DNA of 64,000 nt from a virus (taxonomy: Duplodnaviria; Caudoviricetes). The notes beneath the pieces were generated by a model. It saw only the letters and a program-made list of their open reading frames with translations. It did no database searches and was not told the origin of the DNA. Positions 32,959-40,745 of the stretch are shown piece after piece. The DNA is taken from IMG/VR virus record IMGVR_UViG_3300026116_000035. One strand, given 5' to 3'. Within the stretch, counting starts at the first letter, position 1, and every line of letters begins with the position of its first letter. A program made the position numbers and the translations under genes.

Positions 32959-33621
32959 ATGAGTAATTTGAATAAAGACGAAATAAATGAAATTGTAAAA
33001 GAATTTATTGAGCTAAGAGAACGAGCCGAAAAAAGTAAAAGCAAAAAAATTAAAAGCAAATTCCTCGAGTTTCAATCAACTATAGTAAAAAAATTATCGC
33101 ATCTGGTATTATTAAGAACTAATAGATACAGAATGTTTTCAAATTATCATGACCTGCAGCAGGATGGATTCGAGGCTCTCTTTATGGCATTAAAAACTTA
33201 CCGCCCAGAAAAAGGGGATTTCTCCTGGTGGGCTAAAAAATATATAGATACTAGAGTTTCGAGAGCTGCTAATTCACATTCTACTATTAAATATCCATTA
33301 AAAACAATTAAAGATTTCAAACCTCATAAAGTCAGTATCATCCCTGTTATTACCGATATTGCTTTAGATCCTCAACAATCTTTAGAACAAATGGAAATTA
33401 AAAAGGCAATTACAGAAGCTATCGTATTATTACCCGAACTACAACAAAAAGTAGTTAAATTATCTTTCGAAATGGCTGGAAATAGAGCTTCTACAATAAC
33501 AAAAATTTCTGAAGAATTAAAAATATCACGATCAGCTTGTATGAAAATATTAGAAGAAGCGAAACAAACTTTAAAATTAACATTGATTAGTAACTTGACG
33601 GATTTGGAGAATAATGAGTGA
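32959..33621 (+). CDS. sigma-70 family RNA polymerase sigma factor (phage-encoded)
   Basis: Region 2 [32 protein letters not shown]; region 4 LPELQQKVV...[16 protein letters not shown] helix-turn-helix. Confidence 0.85.
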
Positions 33622-34570
33622 TATCGAAAATAGCGAACGATTTGTTTTATTTCCTATAAAGTATAATGAAATTTGGAAAATGTATAAGGATGCCGAGGCT
33701 TCCTTTTGGACCGCTGAAGAAGTTGATTTAACCGGTGATATAAATGACTGGAAATCTTTAAAAGATTCTGAAAAATATTTTATTAGTCATATTTTAGCTT
33801 TCTTTGCAGCTTCAGATGGTATTGTTGGAGAAAATTTAGCATTACGTTTTTATGGTGATGTAAAAATCCCCGAAGCTCGTGCATTTTATGGATTTCAATT
33901 AATGATGGAGGGTATACATTCAGAAATGTATAGCTTATTAATTGATACTTATATTAATGATGATAAAGAAAAAAATAAATTATTTAACGCTGTTAATGAA
34001 ATTCCCATTATAAAAGAAAAAGCAAAATGGGCTTTAAGATGGATTGATTCAAATGAGTCATTCGCAGAACGACTAATTGCCTTTGCTATTGTTGAAGGTG
34101 TGTTTTTTAGTTCATCATTTTGTTCTATTTATTGGCTTAAAAAACGCGGCCTGATGCCAGGGTTAGCATTTTCCAATGAGAGTATAAGTAGGGATGAGAA
34201 TCTCCATTGCGAATTCGCTTGTTTACTATATAAAACATTAGGATTTAATTTATCTCAAGATAGAATAAATGAAATTTTTACGCAGGCGGTTGAACTAGAA
34301 TGTAAATTTGCGACTGAAGCTCTTCCTGTTAGTTTAATAGGAATGAATGCTGACTTAATGAGTCAATACATAAAATATGTAGCTGATAGACTTGCGGTAT
34401 CATTAGGATATAAAAAAATATATAATGAAACTAATCCGTTTGACTGGATGGAATCAATTTCATTAGTTAAAAAAGGTAATTTTTTTGAAGTTAAAGTTGC
34501 CAATTATAAGAAAAATGGAGTCGGATTAACTGCTGAGCAAAATTCTGTTTCATTTGACGCTGATTTTTAA
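33614..34570 (+). CDS. nrdB: ribonucleoside-diphosphate reductase class Ia beta subunit
   Basis: [35 protein letters not shown] (radical Tyr), VEGVFF, SRDENLH, NFFE. Confidence 0.95.
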
Positions 34571-34598
34571 TTTATAAATACTAAAATAGGAAATACTA

Positions 34599-36212
34599 AT
34601 GTTCGTAATTAAACGCGATGGATCCAAGGAACAAGTAAAGTTTGAAAAGGTAGCTAAAAGAATAACGAGAGTCGCCAAAGATCTTAAAAATGTTGATCCT
34701 AATGCTGTAGCTCAAAAAGTTATTCAGGGTATTTATGATGGCGTATCTACTGTAGAATTAGATAAACTTGCAATAGAAGTAGCATATTCTATGACCACTA
34801 TGCATTATGAATATGATCGATTAGCTGTTAGACTCGCTGTTTCAAATTTACATAAAAATACACCTTCTACTTTTTCTGAAGCTGTTGATAAAGTTTACAA
34901 TTCAGTTGATGTATTTGGAAATAAACGTCCATTAATAGCTGAAGATGTATATACTATAATTAAGAAAAATGCTCACATTCTGGATTCAAAAATTGATTAT
35001 GATCGGGATTATTTATTAGATTATTTTGGATTCAAAACATTAGAGCGATCTTATTTATTAAAGATAAATGAATATGTTGATAATAAATTAACACAAAAAA
35101 TCGCATTTCGGCCACAACATTTATGGATGATGGTTTCAGTTGGAATTCATAAAGAAGATATTGATGCCGCATTAGAAACATATGAAATTCTTTCTAAAAA
35201 AGAAGCTACACATGCAACTCCAACATTATTTAATGCAGGATTAATTAAAAATCAGCTCAGCAGTTGTTTTTTAATAGCAATGAATTCTTCCGATTCAATG
35301 GCTGGTATTTATGATACATTAAAACAAACTGCTTTAATAAGTCAAAGTGCCGGAGGAATTGGATTACACATTCATAATATAAGATCAAAAGGATCTCCAA
35401 TATTTGGCACAGGAGGATTATCAAATGGTATAATTCCTATGTTAAAAAACTTTAATGAAACTGCGCGTTATGTTGATCAGGGCGGGAAAAGGAAAGGCTC
35501 ATTTGCCATATACTTAGAGAGCTGGCATTCCGATATCTTTGAATTTTTAGATTTACGTAAAAATAATGGTAAAGAAGAATTTCGTGCAAGAGATTTAAAT
35601 CTTGCTTTATGGGCTCCTGATTTATTTTTCAAACGAGTAAAAGAAGATGGAAAATGGACATTAATGGACCCAGCTAAATGTAAAAATCTTTCCGATGTTC
35701 ATAGTGAAGAATTTGACAAATTATATATTCAATATGAACAAAACAATATGGGTGAAAAAACAATTAATGCACGTGATCTTTGGAGTAAGATTGTTGAAGC
35801 ACAAATTGAAACTGGTCAACCATATATTTTAGCAAAAGATGCTTGTAATAATAAATCAAATCAAAAAAATCTTGGTACAATTAAGAGCAGTAATCTTTGT
35901 ATAGCTGGTGATACATCTGTTTTTATTAAAACCTCATTAGTGGATGATGAAATTGAACTTCCAATTAATAACGTTGTTAACATGTTTAAAAATGGAGAAA
36001 AATTATTTATCAAATCATATGATGAAATAAATGATAAAATTACTTTCAATGAAATATTAAACGGTGCAGAAACAAATCGTGAAGCTGAAGTTTTAAAAAT
36101 TACTTACAATGATTATGAAATAGTTTGTACCGAAGATCATGAATTTTTCACCACAAGAGGTTACGTAAAAGCCAAAAATTTATTGGAAACAGATATTTTA
36201 AAATTAATTTAA
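34599..36212 (+). CDS. nrdA: ribonucleotide reductase alpha subunit, N-terminal fragment fused to N-intein
   Basis: ATP cone [55 protein letters not shown], ending [10 protein letters not shown] then intein. Confidence 0.93.
35898..36209 (+). mobile_element. N-terminal half of a naturally split intein (104 aa)
   Basis: Begins [10 protein letters not shown] (block A) immediately after SSNL; contains [19 protein letters not shown] (block B, TxxH); ends at the stop codon. Confidence 0.92.
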
Positions 36213-36222
36213 TTGGAATTTA

Positions 36223-37335
36223 ATGATAGAAAAAGAAAATGAAGAAAAAATAAAACAAAATAAATTTTATTGTGAGTTTGATTCAAAATTTTATAATCGC
36301 ATACAAATGGTAAAATTATTAAAAATAAATGTAGACATGTTTAATTATTATTTTAATAAATTATCATTAGAATTACAAAATGAAGTAATTAAAAGTAATG
36401 ATTATAAATATAAATATTTATATAGAATTATATCTAATAAAATCATATATTGTATTTATTCTAATAAATTAATTCCATTTGAAAGAGTTCTTAGAGGATG
36501 CATAACATTTTCAGATGTTGAAAGTTTATGGGGTAAAGGAATATCAACACGAAATAAAAAAAGACCCGAACATGCTAAAATAATTTCTCTTAAGCTTAAA
36601 GGTGTTAAAAAATCTAATGAACACCGTAATAAAATGACTCAAAGATTAAAATCTATAGATTTTAAAAAAAAAGTACTGTCTAATAAAGGAATTGAATATA
36701 CGGATGATTCTTCTGTATATGAAAAATATGCCGCCCTGTATTCTAATTTATTAAAATCGTTTGATTTTAAAAAATCATTTGTTTTAAATAATTATAAATT
36801 ATATTTAGAAGATACAGAATTAACTCATGAAGAAATTAATCAAATGAGTGAAACTGAAATTTTAAATTTATATTCTGAATTAATGTCAATAAAAAGTTCT
36901 ATAGCTATGGCTAATTCAACTTCAATGGGGAATGCCAAAATAGTTAAAATTGAAAATTTACAATATAATTTAAGAAATATAAATTCAATTGATGTTAGAT
37001 CTGAAATGGAAAAGAAAATAATTTCTTTTTTTGAACGTAATAAAATTTATTGGGATTATGAAACTGAAATTATAAAATATTTTTTTAATTTTAATAGAAG
37101 ATATATTATGGATTTTATATTTTATATTGATGGTAAATGTAATTATATGGAAGTAAAAGGTTCGGTTAGAAGTAGTGATGTTGAAAAAACATTAGCAAAA
37201 ACCAAAACAGCAATTGAAAAATTTGGTGAAATATATGTTTATCAAAAAGAATTAATTACGTCGATAAAAGATTTAGATAAAATTAAATATAATAATTTTT
37301 CAGAATTTAAGTTAAAACACGTATATGGAGATTGA
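36223..37335 (+). CDS. free-standing putative homing endonuclease (NUMOD3-like repeats plus a C-terminal PD-(D/E)xK-like domain)
   Basis: KKRPEHAKIISLKLKGVKKSNEHRNKM; C-terminal VRSEMEKK...WDYE...YIMDF...YMEVKG; lies exactly between the two nrdA halves. Confidence 0.72.
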   Translation: MIEKENEEKIKQNKFYCEFDSKFYNRIQMVKLLKINVDMFNYYFNKLSLELQNEVIKSNDYKYKYLYRIISNKIIYCIYSNKLIPFERVLRGCITFSDVESLWGKGISTRNKKRPEHAKIISLKLKGVKKSNEHRNKMTQRLKSIDFKKKVLSNKGIEYTDDSSVYEKYAALYSNLLKSFDFKKSFVLNNYKLYLEDTELTHEEINQMSETEILNLYSELMSIKSSIAMANSTSMGNAKIVKIENLQYNLRNINSIDVRSEMEKKIISFFERNKIYWDYETEIIKYFFNFNRRYIMDFIFYIDGKCNYMEVKGSVRSSDVEKTLAKTKTAIEKFGEIYVYQKELITSIKDLDKIKYNNFSEFKLKHVYGD

Positions 37336-37434
37336 ATGTTAAAAATAGAAAAATTGTCACAAAAAATTCCGGTATATGATTTAACTGTTAAAGATAATCA
37401 TAATTTTTTTGCTAATAAGATTTTGGTTCATAAT
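37336..37434 (+). mobile_element. C-terminal half of the split intein (33 aa)
   Basis: MLKIEKL...VYDLTVKDNHNFFANKILVHN followed by Cys+1 (blocks F/G, terminal His-Asn). Confidence 0.93.
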
Positions 37435-38523
37435 TGCGCCGAAATAATTGAATATTCTGATGATCAATCAACCGCAGTATGTAATTTAGCATCTATCTCA
37501 CTACCTTCTTGCGTTGAAGGTAAAAAATATAAACGAACATTTAATTTTCAAAAACTATATGATATTACTTATCAATTAACTATAAATTTAAATAAAGTTA
37601 TAGACATAGAATATTATCCTGTTGAAGAAGCTAAATATTCTAATTTAAAAAATAGACCTATCGGTATTGGTATTCAGGGTTTAGCTGATGTTTTTGCTTT
37701 GATGCGATTAACCTGGGATAGCAAAGAAGCTTTAATATTAAATCAGCATATAGCTGAAACAATGTATTATGCTTCGTTAAATGCTTCTGCAGATCTGGCT
37801 AAAAAAGATGGTCCTTATGAATCTTATTCTGGATCACCATTAAGTGAAGGTATTTTTCAATTTGATTTATGGAATACTAAACCTACATTGGAAACATGGG
37901 ATTGGGATAAATTAAAGAAAAAAATTAAAAAATATGGTGTTCGGAATTCGCTGTTATTAGCTAACATGCCAACAGCTTCTACGTCTAATATACTTGGTAA
38001 TACCGAATGTTTTGAACCAATTACTTCCAATATTTATACGCGCCAAACATTAAGTGGTGAATTTGTACAAGTAAATAAATATTTGCTAGAAGATTTAATT
38101 GAATTAGGATTATGGAATGATACACTTAAGCAAAAAATTATAGCTTCAAATGGATCAATTCAAAACATTGCTGAAATTCCAGATGATATTAAATTATTAT
38201 ATAAGACTGTTTGGGAAATATCTCAAAAAATAATAATTGATATGGCAGCTGCTCGCGGTCCTTTTATTTGTCAGTCACAAAGCATGAACCTTTATATTAA
38301 AGAAGCAAATACTGCTAAGGTTACCTCTGCAATATTTTATGCTTGGGAAAAAGGATTAAAAACTTTGGTGTATTATTTAAGAACTACAGCTGCACGCGAA
38401 GCTGCTAAATTTACTGTTGATAAAGAAATTGAAAATCAAGTATTAGAAGCTAATCAGGCACTTATTGAAGGTGTAGCATGTTCATTAGATAATCCAGAAT
38501 CTTGTGAAATGTGTTCTGGTTGA
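37336..38523 (+). CDS. nrdA: C-intein fused to the C-terminal fragment of ribonucleotide reductase alpha
   Basis: After the intein: CAEII, VCNLAS, RPIGIGIQGLAD, GVRNSLLLANMPTASTS, QSQSMN, GLKTLVYYLR, terminal C-x-C-E-M-C-S-G redox cysteines. Confidence 0.93.
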   Translation: MLKIEKLSQKIPVYDLTVKDNHNFFANKILVHNCAEIIEYSDDQSTAVCNLASISLPSCVEGKKYKRTFNFQKLYDITYQLTINLNKVIDIEYYPVEEAKYSNLKNRPIGIGIQGLADVFALMRLTWDSKEALILNQHIAETMYYASLNASADLAKKDGPYESYSGSPLSEGIFQFDLWNTKPTLETWDWDKLKKKIKKYGVRNSLLLANMPTASTSNILGNTECFEPITSNIYTRQTLSGEFVQVNKYLLEDLIELGLWNDTLKQKIIASNGSIQNIAEIPDDIKLLYKTVWEISQKIIIDMAAARGPFICQSQSMNLYIKEANTAKVTSAIFYAWEKGLKTLVYYLRTTAAREAAKFTVDKEIENQVLEANQALIEGVACSLDNPESCEMCSG

Positions 38524-38554
38524 AATTTAATAATCCAGTCCTATATGTCGAGAT

Positions 38555-38570
38555 AGAATTTTAAAATTCT
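38555..38570. other. perfect 16-bp palindrome in the intergenic region after nrdA
   Basis: AGAATTTTAAAATTCT. Confidence 0.4.
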
Positions 38571-38603
38571 TCTATTAACTAGAATATAATAAGGAAAAAT
38601 TAA

Positions 38604-38918
38604 ATGGAACAATTATCATTTAAATTTATGGAATCACAAGAATATAATAAATCAAAAGAAGATAAAATGCTTATTGCAAAATCTTTAATTAAAGATGCAG
38701 AAGATTTTGTATCTAAACATTTACCATGTTCAGATGTAGTTATATCTAATGAAGAATTAATGGCGGAAGCAAATGCTCTAGCTGATAAATATTTAAATAT
38801 CTCAGGAATGGATGCTTTATGTATGGCCGCAAGAGGTGATTTCTACGATACCGATTTAGAAGGTAGTATTTTGCATGCTAATTTGAGAAGAATAGCTTTT
38901 TTACTTAATATGTACTAA
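38604..38918 (+). CDS. hypothetical protein
   Basis: 104-aa ORF with AAGGA SD. Confidence 0.6.
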   Translation: MEQLSFKFMESQEYNKSKEDKMLIAKSLIKDAEDFVSKHLPCSDVVISNEELMAEANALADKYLNISGMDALCMAARGDFYDTDLEGSILHANLRRIAFLLNMY

Positions 38919-38919
38919 A

Positions 38920-39294
38920 ATGGAAGAAACGGTATTTGCTGATAATGATAATTTTAAAGAAGTTCATGATCAGCTTCGTTTTATTTGGTTTAGAAATTTA
39001 TTAATACAAACTGGCATGGATTTAGAAAATTGTTTTCCAGATTCAGATGATCCACATGATCAGACAATTGAGCAGAAATTAAAATTAAAAAATATACTAA
39101 GTGATAATAAAATATTCATTGTAGATAATAATGATGATTCTTTAATGATTTATATTCAAGATCAATTAATTGGACAATGGAATAAACCTCGGTATGATAA
39201 AAGAGAAGATTTATCACAAAGAGGGAAAAGAAATAAATATTATATAGGTATTAATTTAAATTATTGGTCTGTTTTTGATGAAATTGAAAGTTGA
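38920..39294 (+). CDS. hypothetical protein
   Basis: 124-aa ORF, tightly packed. Confidence 0.6.
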   Translation: MEETVFADNDNFKEVHDQLRFIWFRNLLIQTGMDLENCFPDSDDPHDQTIEQKLKLKNILSDNKIFIVDNNDDSLMIYIQDQLIGQWNKPRYDKREDLSQRGKRNKYYIGINLNYWSVFDEIES

Positions 39295-39591: not shown

Positions 39592-39955
39592 AAAATTACA
39601 AAAATTAGCAAACTTAGCAATCGTTAGACAACATGCTGCCGGAGTTACTGCTTCAACAAATTTTCAAAAAGCTTATATAAATAAGGTTAATAATTGTTTA
39701 TCCGCTTTAGATGCAGAGTTTGTTAAAGAATTGACCGATTTAGTTGGAGATGTAAGTAAGCAAGATAATGCAACTATTTCTCAAAGATTAGCAGAAGAAA
39801 AAGCTAAATTAAATAAGCCAGTTCAGAAAGAAGTTGTAAATACTTCGGCTTTAGATGAAACGGTATTAGTTGATTTAGAAGTTTCAAATAAATCTGAAAC
39901 TAGACCTTCTATTAAGACGAGTAAAAAAGCTAATAAAAATGAAGCTTCAAAGTAA
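39581..39955 (+). CDS. hypothetical protein
   Basis: 124-aa ORF overlapping its neighbours. Confidence 0.55.
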   Translation: MDSEKLQKLANLAIVRQHAAGVTASTNFQKAYINKVNNCLSALDAEFVKELTDLVGDVSKQDNATISQRLAEEKAKLNKPVQKEVVNTSALDETVLVDLEVSNKSETRPSIKTSKKANKNEASK

Positions 39956-40745
39956 AAATAAATTTTCCACAAATTCTATTATTAAATTATATGATAGAGA
40001 ATCTTTAAATAAACAAAAAATAGCTGGAAGATGTGTAGCTTCAATATTAAAAGAATGTGGAAAATTAATTAAAGATAAAACACCTAATTTATCATTAAGA
40101 GATTTGGAGCAAATTACATATTTATATACAAAAAATATGGGATGCACTCCAACTTTTTTAAATTATCATGGATTTCCTGGAGCTGCTTGTATTTCCGTAA
40201 ATAAGCAATTGGTACACGGGATCCCTTCAGATTATATTTTAAAAGAAGGTGATGTTGTTTCTGTTGATGTGGGAGCAACATTTGAAGGTAAGATTGCTGA
40301 TGCTGCTAGAACTTGGATTTATGGAGATCCTATTTCTCAAGAACATGTTAGACTGATTAATACTTGTAAAAATTCATTAAAAGCTGCTATTTCTAAAATT
40401 GAGGTTGGAAAAAGACTTGGTATCATAGGTTATACCATTTATAATGAAACGAAGAATTCTGGATTTTCATTAATTACAAATTATGGAGGACATCATATAG
40501 CAGATAATGTACCTCATGCTGAAACTTTTATAGCTAATAAAGAAGATCAATTTAAAGGTAATAGAATGCAGTATGGGGAAGTTATGGCAATAGAGCCGAT
40601 GTTAGTTATAGGTTCTCCGGAAACTAAAGTATTGGAAGATAAATGGACTGTGATGACATCTGGAATTGGATGTCATTTTGAGAATACGGTTTGTTTAATG
40701 GAGGATGGGGTACATATACTTACAGAGGTTCCTAATGAAGATTGA
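39939..40745 (+). CDS. map: methionine aminopeptidase type I
   Basis: GFPGAACISVN..VHGIP, VSVDVG, ADAART, GGHH, AIEPM, HFENT (all metal ligands present). Confidence 0.92.
   Translation: MKLQSKNKFSTNSIIKLYDRESLNKQKIAGRCVASILKECGKLIKDKTPNLSLRDLEQITYLYTKNMGCTPTFLNYHGFPGAACISVNKQLVHGIPSDYILKEGDVVSVDVGATFEGKIADAARTWIYGDPISQEHVRLINTCKNSLKAAISKIEVGKRLGIIGYTIYNETKNSGFSLITNYGGHHIADNVPHAETFIANKEDQFKGNRMQYGEVMAIEPMLVIGSPETKVLEDKWTVMTSGIGCHFENTVCLMEDGVHILTEVPNED

Follow-up and report, generated by a model that had tools for sequence, protein, structure and literature searches.

A fractured nrdA with an NrdA-2-family split intein and a putative homing endonuclease in a huge soil phage

In a 64,000-nucleotide stretch of DNA from a tailed phage (Duplodnaviria; Caudoviricetes; IMG/VR record IMGVR_UViG_3300026116_000035; the whole stretch is called the window below), the gene nrdA, which encodes the large subunit of ribonucleotide reductase (RNR), is broken into two fragments that lie on either side of a third, free-standing gene. 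We consider it probable that this is a fractured nrdA, interrupted directly before the codon of the thiyl-radical cysteine by a cassette consisting of an NrdA-2-family split intein and a homing endonuclease gene, and that the two products are rejoined by protein trans-splicing. The locus is complete and apparently intact, lies in a near-complete huge-phage genome, and is accompanied by a syntenic relative with an empty insertion site and by more than ten diverged sister loci.

Results

Layout of the interrupted nrdA locus

Three tightly packed plus-strand open reading frames (ORFs; 34599–36212, 36223–37335 and 37336–38523) directly follow nrdB, in the order that defines fractured genes (Dassa 2009, PMC2677866): host N-fragment with the N-intein, free-standing endonuclease ORF, and C-intein with the host C-fragment, all on one strand. 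The elements discussed below are as follows.

33614..34570, plus strand: nrdB, RNR small subunit (Pfam Ribonuc_red_sm, E 9e-115; 67% identity to nrdB of the syntenic relative L001)
34599..35897, plus strand: nrdA N-extein, 433 residues, ending in IKSSNL (Pfam, yeast Rnr1 alignment, motif positions)
35898..36212, plus strand: predicted N-intein, 104 residues and a TAA stop (Cys1 in CIAGD, block B C-T-E-D-H, net charge -9)
36223..37335, plus strand: free-standing putative homing endonuclease, 370 residues (PHROGs, structure model, family profile, context)
37336..37434, plus strand: predicted C-intein, 33 residues (block F VYD...NHNF, block G ILVHN, net charge +2)
37435..38523, plus strand: nrdA C-extein, 362 residues (Cys+1 in C-A-E; AVCNL, YY pair, CEMC tail)

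The N-fragment (34599–36212; 537 residues) matches the Pfam models ATP-cone, Ribonuc_red_lgN and positions 1–213 of the 523 positions of Ribonuc_red_lgC. The C-fragment (37336–38523; 395 residues) begins with the C-intein ending in ILVHN, continues with CAEII, and matches Ribonuc_red_lgC positions 196–523. An earlier, sequence-only reading of this DNA had described an N-fragment ending in SSNL plus a 104-residue N-intein, and a C-fragment in which a 33-residue C-intein ending in HN precedes CAEII; these boundaries proved exact to the base.

Non-coding DNA amounts to 10 nucleotides between the N-fragment and the nuclease gene and to 0 nucleotides between the nuclease gene and the C-fragment, where the TGA stop abuts the ATG start (TGAATG) and a GGAG lies 7–10 nucleotides upstream of that ATG. 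Among relatives, the spacer before the nuclease gene measures 35–87 nucleotides, and the nuclease gene and C-fragment overlap by 4–47 nucleotides. Terminator-like sites were at or below shuffle expectation, with no terminator detected inside the three-ORF block, and no hairpin was found before the C-fragment start (fold z-score 0.9). From this layout we infer that transcription runs on from nrdB as one unit and that the C-fragment is translationally coupled; nrdB, directly upstream of the nrdA N-fragment, is probably part of the same operon.

The two exteins align as one NrdA

The N-extein aligns end to end with residues 1–427 of yeast Rnr1 (E 1e-160), and the C-extein resumes at residue 428 and continues through the C-terminal Cys-x-x-Cys tail (E 6e-133). 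Joined, they give a gap-free sequence of 795 residues with SSCFL at 221, NLCAE at 432, AVCNL at 447, YY at 746 and CEMC at 790. The claim that an SSNL-CAE junction restores the NLCxE site is therefore borne out, with all motifs kept in the alignment. The N-extein holds the ATP-cone, the all-alpha domain and the first part of the barrel, including the catalytic Asn and the redox Cys of SSCFL. Together, the exteins contain every element by which a class Ia RNR alpha subunit is recognised, namely the ATP-cone, all-alpha domain, ten-stranded barrel, N-x-C-x-E loop, redox Cys pair, Tyr-Tyr pair and C-terminal Cys pair, and the predicted joined product is a eukaryote-like class Ia R1 with an N-L-C-x-E active site.

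The catalytic residues of the class Ia RNR of E. coli are N437, C439 and E441. In the window, the N-fragment carries the catalytic Asn, and the C-fragment carries the other two residues, the Glu and the thiyl-radical Cys; with its active site divided in this way between two chains, the phage RNR should be inactive when unspliced. The first residue after the C-intein, Cys+1 (37435–37437), corresponds in the alignment to the yeast Rnr1 active-site Cys and is invariant among related loci, in keeping with the proposal that this residue would be both the splicing nucleophile and the RNR catalytic Cys. The end-to-end yeast Rnr1 alignments, together with the intein matches described below, indicate that the fractured arrangement is not due to chance.

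An uninterrupted counterpart is found in the syntenic relative L001, which has dnaB, a small ORF, a zinc-ribbon gene, a sigma-like gene, nrdB, nrdA and a methionine aminopeptidase gene. Its nrdA is 66–68% identical to the window exteins and reads KSSNLCIE over the insertion site, as expected of an empty allele. Three more close NrdA relatives are also uninterrupted. Conversely, an independent soil metagenome contains the same arrangement as the window at approximately 98% identity, with contigs that span both the N-intein/nuclease and the nuclease/C-intein junctions, so an assembly artefact is not the cause of the layout.

The eukaryote-like character of the exteins (operon 33614–38523) is also seen in their matches to the R1 proteins of yeast (E 1e-160), human (1e-155) and E. 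coli (1e-41), and extends to the C-terminal ...DNPE.CEMCSG tail. Contigs of giant-virus metagenome-assembled genomes (L003) are among the closest intein-less relatives of the window RNR.

Halves of an NrdA-2-family split intein

The best solved match of the N-intein was the NrdJ-1 intein structure (8ubs; E 4.5e-4), and among the solved inteins that matched the C-intein (E 1e-4 to 2e-3) were those of DnaX, DnaB and gp41-1. With the Pfam model Intein_splicing, the N-intein matched model positions 2–92 over its last approximately 90 residues (24.6 bits), and the C-intein matched positions 125–155 (31.4 bits).

We aligned the halves with those of other fractured nrdA loci, gathered by searching viral contigs and protein collections; six N-halves are 31–42% and eight C-halves 55–82% identical to the window. 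Homologous halves occur at fractured nrdA in L027/L028, L035, L036/L037, L038, L059–L063, L065, L066, L068 and L070. Cys1 (35898–35900), directly after SSNL, is invariant among the N-halves, as are the Thr and His of block B (C-T-E-D-H) in six loci. In eight loci, D15, H22, H32 and N33 of the C-intein, that is, the block F Asp and His and the terminal His-Asn, are invariant together with Cys+1.

The two halves have opposite charge, the N-half being acidic (-9) and the C-half basic (+2). Predicted docking of the halves scored 0.77, against 0.01 for the best control, a level attained by 58 of the 80 solved complexes and by 2 of the 110 mismatched pairs; the docking runs agreed in at least 94% of contacts, with a partner pLDDT (predicted local distance difference test) of at least 77. 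Because similar complexes have already been solved, this result denotes likeness to split-intein complexes rather than binding.

By eye, from a table digitised by optical character recognition, the C-intein shares 23 of 33 residues with the printed NrdA-2 sequence and the N-intein roughly one third, and the last 13 C-intein residues are identical to NrdJ-1 at 11 positions. We assign the element, on these comparisons, to the class 1 split inteins (HINT fold) of the NrdA-2 family, as a new allele of an already characterised family. No second intein turned up in a six-frame scan of the window.

A T7-endonuclease-I/TnsA-like nuclease between the halves

Taken alone, the middle protein had no Pfam match, no PDB sequence match and no Foldseek PDB match at E<=0.001, and its match to PHROGs phrog_945, 'endonuclease', was weak (E 6e-7, residues 254–358). 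Its family was placed using VIA-align, BFVD, AFDB and a 60-member profile. The neighbours in BFVD and AFDB are phage proteins labelled as 'endonuclease I', 'NUMOD3' and 'TnsA N-terminal' proteins, in agreement with the Atlas, and an exhaustive profile search for the family returned 144 representative clusters. Pfam recognised Tn7_TnsA-like_N in 14 and Phage_endo_I in 13 of the 60 relatives.

A structure model built from eight homologues (30–69% identical) had a mean pLDDT of 77. In this model, the C-terminal domain (residues ~237–360) is predicted to resemble TnsA (1t0f; Z 8.4) most closely, followed by Bax1 (Z 6.7), VRR-NUC and Vsr (1cw0) proteins (both Z 6.2) and I-Bth0305I (3r3p; Z 5.9). 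The family profile found T7 endonuclease I (1m0d; E 1.3e-9), with its catalytic residues aligned, as well as Bax1; Vsr and I-Bth0305I were not found by this profile search. Sixty relatives at 19–39% identity all retain E263, E280, D297, E310, K312 and G313, and in the profile alignment E263, D297, E310 and K312 fall on E20, D55, E65 and K67 of T7 endonuclease I, in a numbering consistent with the listed mutant chains K67A and E65K. The middle gene is thus assigned, by profile and invariant residues, to the T7-endonuclease-I/TnsA-like PD-(D/E)xK nucleases, whose catalytic Glu, Asp and Glu-x-Lys sit on an alpha-beta-beta-beta-alpha core.

Identity as a GIY-YIG or Vsr-like nuclease, the types reported before in fractured genes, was rejected on the same evidence. 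Across the 60 relatives, the nuclease domain has no invariant His or second Asp of the kind that marks the EDxHD family; the invariant E, D and ExK without a conserved His, together with the lack of a profile match to Vsr, argue that the protein is not Vsr-like. Upstream of the nuclease domain lies an N-terminal extension of approximately 235 residues that appears to be of a DNA-binding type. A basic segment within it (GKKRPEH...KG..KS.EH, near residues 106–140) resembles NUMOD3 by eye, and Atlas neighbours carry NUMOD3; Pfam gave no NUMOD3 (PF07460) match at E<=1 in eight members.

In all 11 family contexts that were looked up, including the window, the nuclease gene lies between split RNR halves, with P0030 (L071) counted on intein marks alone, since it lies between intein-bearing ORFs with no RNR marks noted. 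Nine of these contexts are in nrdA (P0003, P0006, P0008, P0009, P0010, P0011, P0012, P0016 and the window; down to ~26% identity), and P0051 is flanked by class II RNR (nrdJ-like) ORFs with split-intein halves; overall, the association of the family with such sites extends down to ~20–25% identity. This pattern, in the contexts looked up, fits a site-specific mobile nuclease that lodges repeatedly in this intein. These homologues came from large protein collections, and none was found in the IMG/VR loci fetched via the C-fragment.

The same intein family can be filled differently. In L027/L028 a GIY-YIG gene occupies the same place, and L035 and L036 have a split intein with no nuclease gene between its halves, which indicates that the intein does not need the nuclease.

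Proposed mechanism

In our model, a mobile cassette was inserted into nrdA of a huge soil or rhizosphere phage exactly before the thiyl-radical Cys, with the endonuclease gene lodged at the canonical endonuclease-insertion point of the intein. The three ORFs would be co-transcribed and translated separately, and the acidic 104-residue N-intein and the basic 33-residue C-intein would dock into one HINT fold. An N-S acyl shift at Cys1 would then be followed by attack of Cys+1 (trans-thioesterification); cyclisation of Asn33 would free the intein, and an S-N shift would leave a native peptide bond. The expected product is a 795-residue NrdA in which N432-L-C434-A-E436 is restored and Cys+1 goes on to serve as the catalytic thiyl radical. 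The nuclease, for its part, would cut intein-less nrdA of co-infecting relatives near the NL/C codons, and repair would copy the whole cassette into the cut allele (homing). The nuclease would thus supply mobility, while the intein would make the insertion harmless. Taken together, the sequence evidence supports joining of the halves by protein trans-splicing at the thiyl-radical Cys.

Discussion

Several observations weigh against this model. Both Pfam intein matches score below the gathering score of 35.8 bits. The regulatory features described for fractured genes by Dassa 2009 (PMC2677866), a spacer of 27–51 nucleotides with a hairpin or a late-promoter element, are missing: here just 10 nucleotides precede the nuclease gene, and they contain neither a detectable hairpin (fold z-score 0.2) nor TATAAATA, and promoter-like sites are at or below shuffle expectation. 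The search of sequencing runs matched DNA runs only, with no RNA run among them. As for the nuclease, the Pro before D297 is nearly invariant across the 60 relatives, and in the window this canonical Pro of the 'PD' motif is replaced by Met (MDF). Furthermore, its nearest solved relative, T7 endonuclease I, is a Holliday-junction resolvase rather than a site-specific enzyme.

One alternative is that the middle gene does not encode a homing endonuclease, or no longer does so. Its product could be a nuclease resident in the phage that resolves junctions or serves in repair, or the gene could be an inactive relic or a fixed passenger in a fixed split intein; the intein would still work. The resolvase activity of T7 endonuclease I is compatible with this, as are the related split inteins of L035 and L036 that persist with no nuclease gene at all. 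We regard this as unlikely, although it is the most serious of the alternatives. Residence of all 11 family members inside a fractured RNR gene, with the reservation made above for P0030, is the signature of a mobile nuclease and not of a housekeeping resolvase, and the catalytic tetrad is invariant across the relatives. The long N-terminal extension with its basic NUMOD3-like segment is typical of phage homing enzymes, and the presence or absence of the cassette differs between syntenic phages.

A second alternative retains the intein halves but assigns them another role, namely as docking tails through which the two NrdA fragments assemble non-covalently, like the mobE-derived tails in phage Aeh1, where split NrdA works without splicing (Crona 2010, PMC3045599). 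The predicted docking of the halves does not separate the two, as it is needed by non-covalent assembly as well. However, the residues required for chemistry alone (Cys1, the block B Thr and His, the terminal Asn and Cys+1) are invariant despite intein identities of only 31–42%, a HINT fold of ~137 residues would adjoin the catalytic Cys at the active site, and the homologous NrdA-2 intein does splice. Non-covalent assembly is improbable on these grounds.

We give a similarly low probability to a decaying gene, in which mobile DNA would have disrupted nrdA, now on course to be lost while the phage uses the host RNR. The split nrdA of Campylobacter phages has been read as degenerating (Dwivedi 2013, PMC3653736), and the lack of a matched RNA run for the window locus would also suit such a gene. 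Against this, the exteins are full-length, keep all catalytic motifs at 66–68% identity to the intact orthologue, and resemble yeast Rnr1 about as closely as would be expected of an intact enzyme; in addition, many phages have retained this architecture despite their divergence. Compared to the ~98% identical variant from the independent soil metagenome, 32 of the 38 listed changed codons are synonymous, with synonymous to non-synonymous counts of 24:4 in the exteins, 3:0 in the nuclease and 3:2 in the inteins, an excess that reads as purifying selection. Intact exteins, an empty allele and a predominance of synonymous changes thus argue jointly against decay.

Finally, joining at the RNA level by a group I or group II intron with an endonuclease ORF in the intervening 1.5 kb, an arrangement for which there is precedent in that phage RNR genes often host group I introns with endonuclease genes, is almost certainly wrong here, as Rfam found no RNA family at E<=1 in 34000–39000, the sequence on either side of the break encodes an intein in frame, with none of its blocks missing, and the 10 and 0 nucleotides of non-coding DNA leave no room for a ribozyme structure.

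We therefore return to a trans-spliced fractured nrdA and to what it adds to earlier work. Its layout and intein family are already known, and the window is a well-preserved new example. Fractured genes with split inteins and a free-standing endonuclease, which the sequence-only reading mentioned as described from metagenomes, had been reported at this very site (Dassa 2009, PMC2677866); the reading's remark that they are rare is too strong, since more than a dozen such loci were found. Its statement that the supply of deoxynucleoside triphosphates depends on splicing is tenable in a narrower wording: it is the phage-encoded RNR activity that would depend on it, because the host has its own RNR. 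The suggestion of a new orthogonal split-intein pair is unlikely with respect to NrdA-2 and NrdJ-1, as membership in the NrdA-2 family and the C-intein identities given above (23/33 and 11/13) make orthogonality to these two doubtful; cross-reaction with NrdA-2 is instead to be expected from the sequences, and perhaps also with NrdJ-1. The practical gain is modest, consisting of another natural NrdA-2 split-intein allele, with junction SNL/CAE, for the protein-ligation toolbox.

What appears to be unreported, and is the sole such feature, is the type of nuclease, together with the tie of its family to RNR split inteins: literature searches, which did not extend to the nuclease types of the published NrdA-1 to NrdA-7 loci, found no T7-endonuclease-I/TnsA-type nuclease in split inteins. 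Its recognition site can be guessed as the intein-less NL/C region of nrdA. More tentatively, with somewhat less than even confidence, we propose that the middle gene founds an undescribed homing lineage, which would combine a T7-endonuclease-I/TnsA domain with a NUMOD-like arm, be specific to the thiyl-radical-Cys site of class I and class II RNR, and occur only with NrdA-2/NrdJ-1 split inteins. At least three fillings are now seen in one intein family, since its gap may hold a GIY-YIG gene or a T7-endonuclease-I-like one, or be empty, and this variety supports the idea that repeated invasion by free-standing nucleases creates split inteins.

Related loci and surroundings

Some of the related loci merit description in their own right. 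In L035 (L035:42-1313), only 9 nucleotides separate the N-half stop from the C-half start, as in a 'cured' version of the cassette. In L036 (L036:4185-7059; also in L037), nrdA is apparently divided into three or more fragments. The halves of the first split intein are just ~200 nucleotides apart, with no nuclease gene between them, and a further tail resembling an N-intein (...VMRDYCESWVKVKDLKEGDDVIAVNT) closes the second fragment. The nrdA of Campylobacter phage CPt10 (L038:3415-7482) is annotated as 'disrupted' and belongs to those read as degenerating by Dwivedi 2013. The locus nevertheless encodes homologous halves of a split intein, in which Cys1, block B and VHN/C are intact and between which two small ORFs lie, so that this nrdA, instead of being a pseudogene, may still function as a fractured gene. 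Distant members of the nuclease family lie between split-intein halves in class II (B12-type) RNR in L072/L073, and this host hints that published NrdJ-type fractured genes may carry the nuclease family too. In L061, a relative with the same cassette, an IS605 OrfB/TnpB gene (Cas12f-like; L061:9623-10864) lies just downstream of nrdB.

The window is AT-rich (~25–30% GC), with nearly all ORFs on the plus strand. The cassette (35898–37434) is poorer in GC than the gene around it, with 25% in the N-intein, 20% in the nuclease gene and 20% in the C-intein; the exteins and nrdB have 30–31%. In this phage lineage, the RNR operon is flanked by a sigma-factor-like ORF (32959–33621) and by a methionine aminopeptidase gene of the Peptidase_M24 type (39939–40745), the latter kept in L001 and in the P0006 contig. 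In read mapping, short contigs of unrelated origin pile up by the thousand on the A-rich start of the nuclease gene (36230–36264); a depth spike of ~5000 at 36128–36271 in two runs was rejected as a sign of copy number and is an artefact of these foreign short A-rich contigs.

Comparison with known systems

The closest counterparts are NrdA-1 to NrdA-7, placed by Dassa 2009 (PMC2677866) at the same insertion site as in the window, and NrdA-2 in particular, with which the window shares the host gene, the SNL/C point, the ORF order, the split into ~104 and 33 residues, and the polarity of an acidic N-half and a basic C-half. NrdA-2, with its native junction SNL/CNE, splices both in cis and in trans, and was orthogonal to the other inteins of an in vitro panel (Pinto 2020, PMC7090010). 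Only GIY-YIG and Vsr-like nucleases were reported in fractured genes by Dassa 2009, whereas the window nuclease is predicted to be neither. The published loci have a hairpin in the spacer, in contrast to the hairpin-free spacer here, and overlaps of 6–69 bp where the window has a stop that abuts the next start. They are also cyanophage-like marine fragments, whereas the window NrdA is eukaryote-like and belongs to a complete huge soil phage.

NrdJ-1 (8ubs), whose insertion point lies one residue further downstream according to Dassa 2009, is hosted by a class II RNR, unlike the class Ia enzyme of the window; distant relatives of the window nuclease do occur in class II RNR. In Aeromonas phage Aeh1 (nrdA-a/mobE/nrdA-b; Friedrich 2007; PMC3045599), a free-standing homing endonuclease likewise breaks nrdA, giving three co-oriented ORFs and an active site divided over two chains. 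Aeh1, however, has no intein, an HNH nuclease and short tails that act non-covalently, whereas the intein halves of the window predict covalent ligation.

Among nucleases, the middle protein shares the PD-(D/E)xK core and the same catalytic residues with T7 endonuclease I (1m0d, 2pfj) and the N-terminal domain of TnsA (1t0f). These are a junction resolvase and a transposase subunit, respectively, whereas the window protein has a long N-terminal extension and is found at split-intein sites. With the EDxHD prototype I-Bth0305I (PMC3239194) it shares a restriction-endonuclease-like fold, the fractured-gene habitat and a bipartite design, which in EDxHD enzymes comprises an N-terminal DNA-binding part, with NUMOD3 in some members; catalysis differs, relying on Asp, His and Asp in EDxHD enzymes and presumably on E, D and ExK, with no conserved His, in the window nuclease. 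The intein-associated nucleases named in a 2025 survey are of the LAGLIDADG, HNH, GIY-YIG, Vsr-like and Endo VII-like types.

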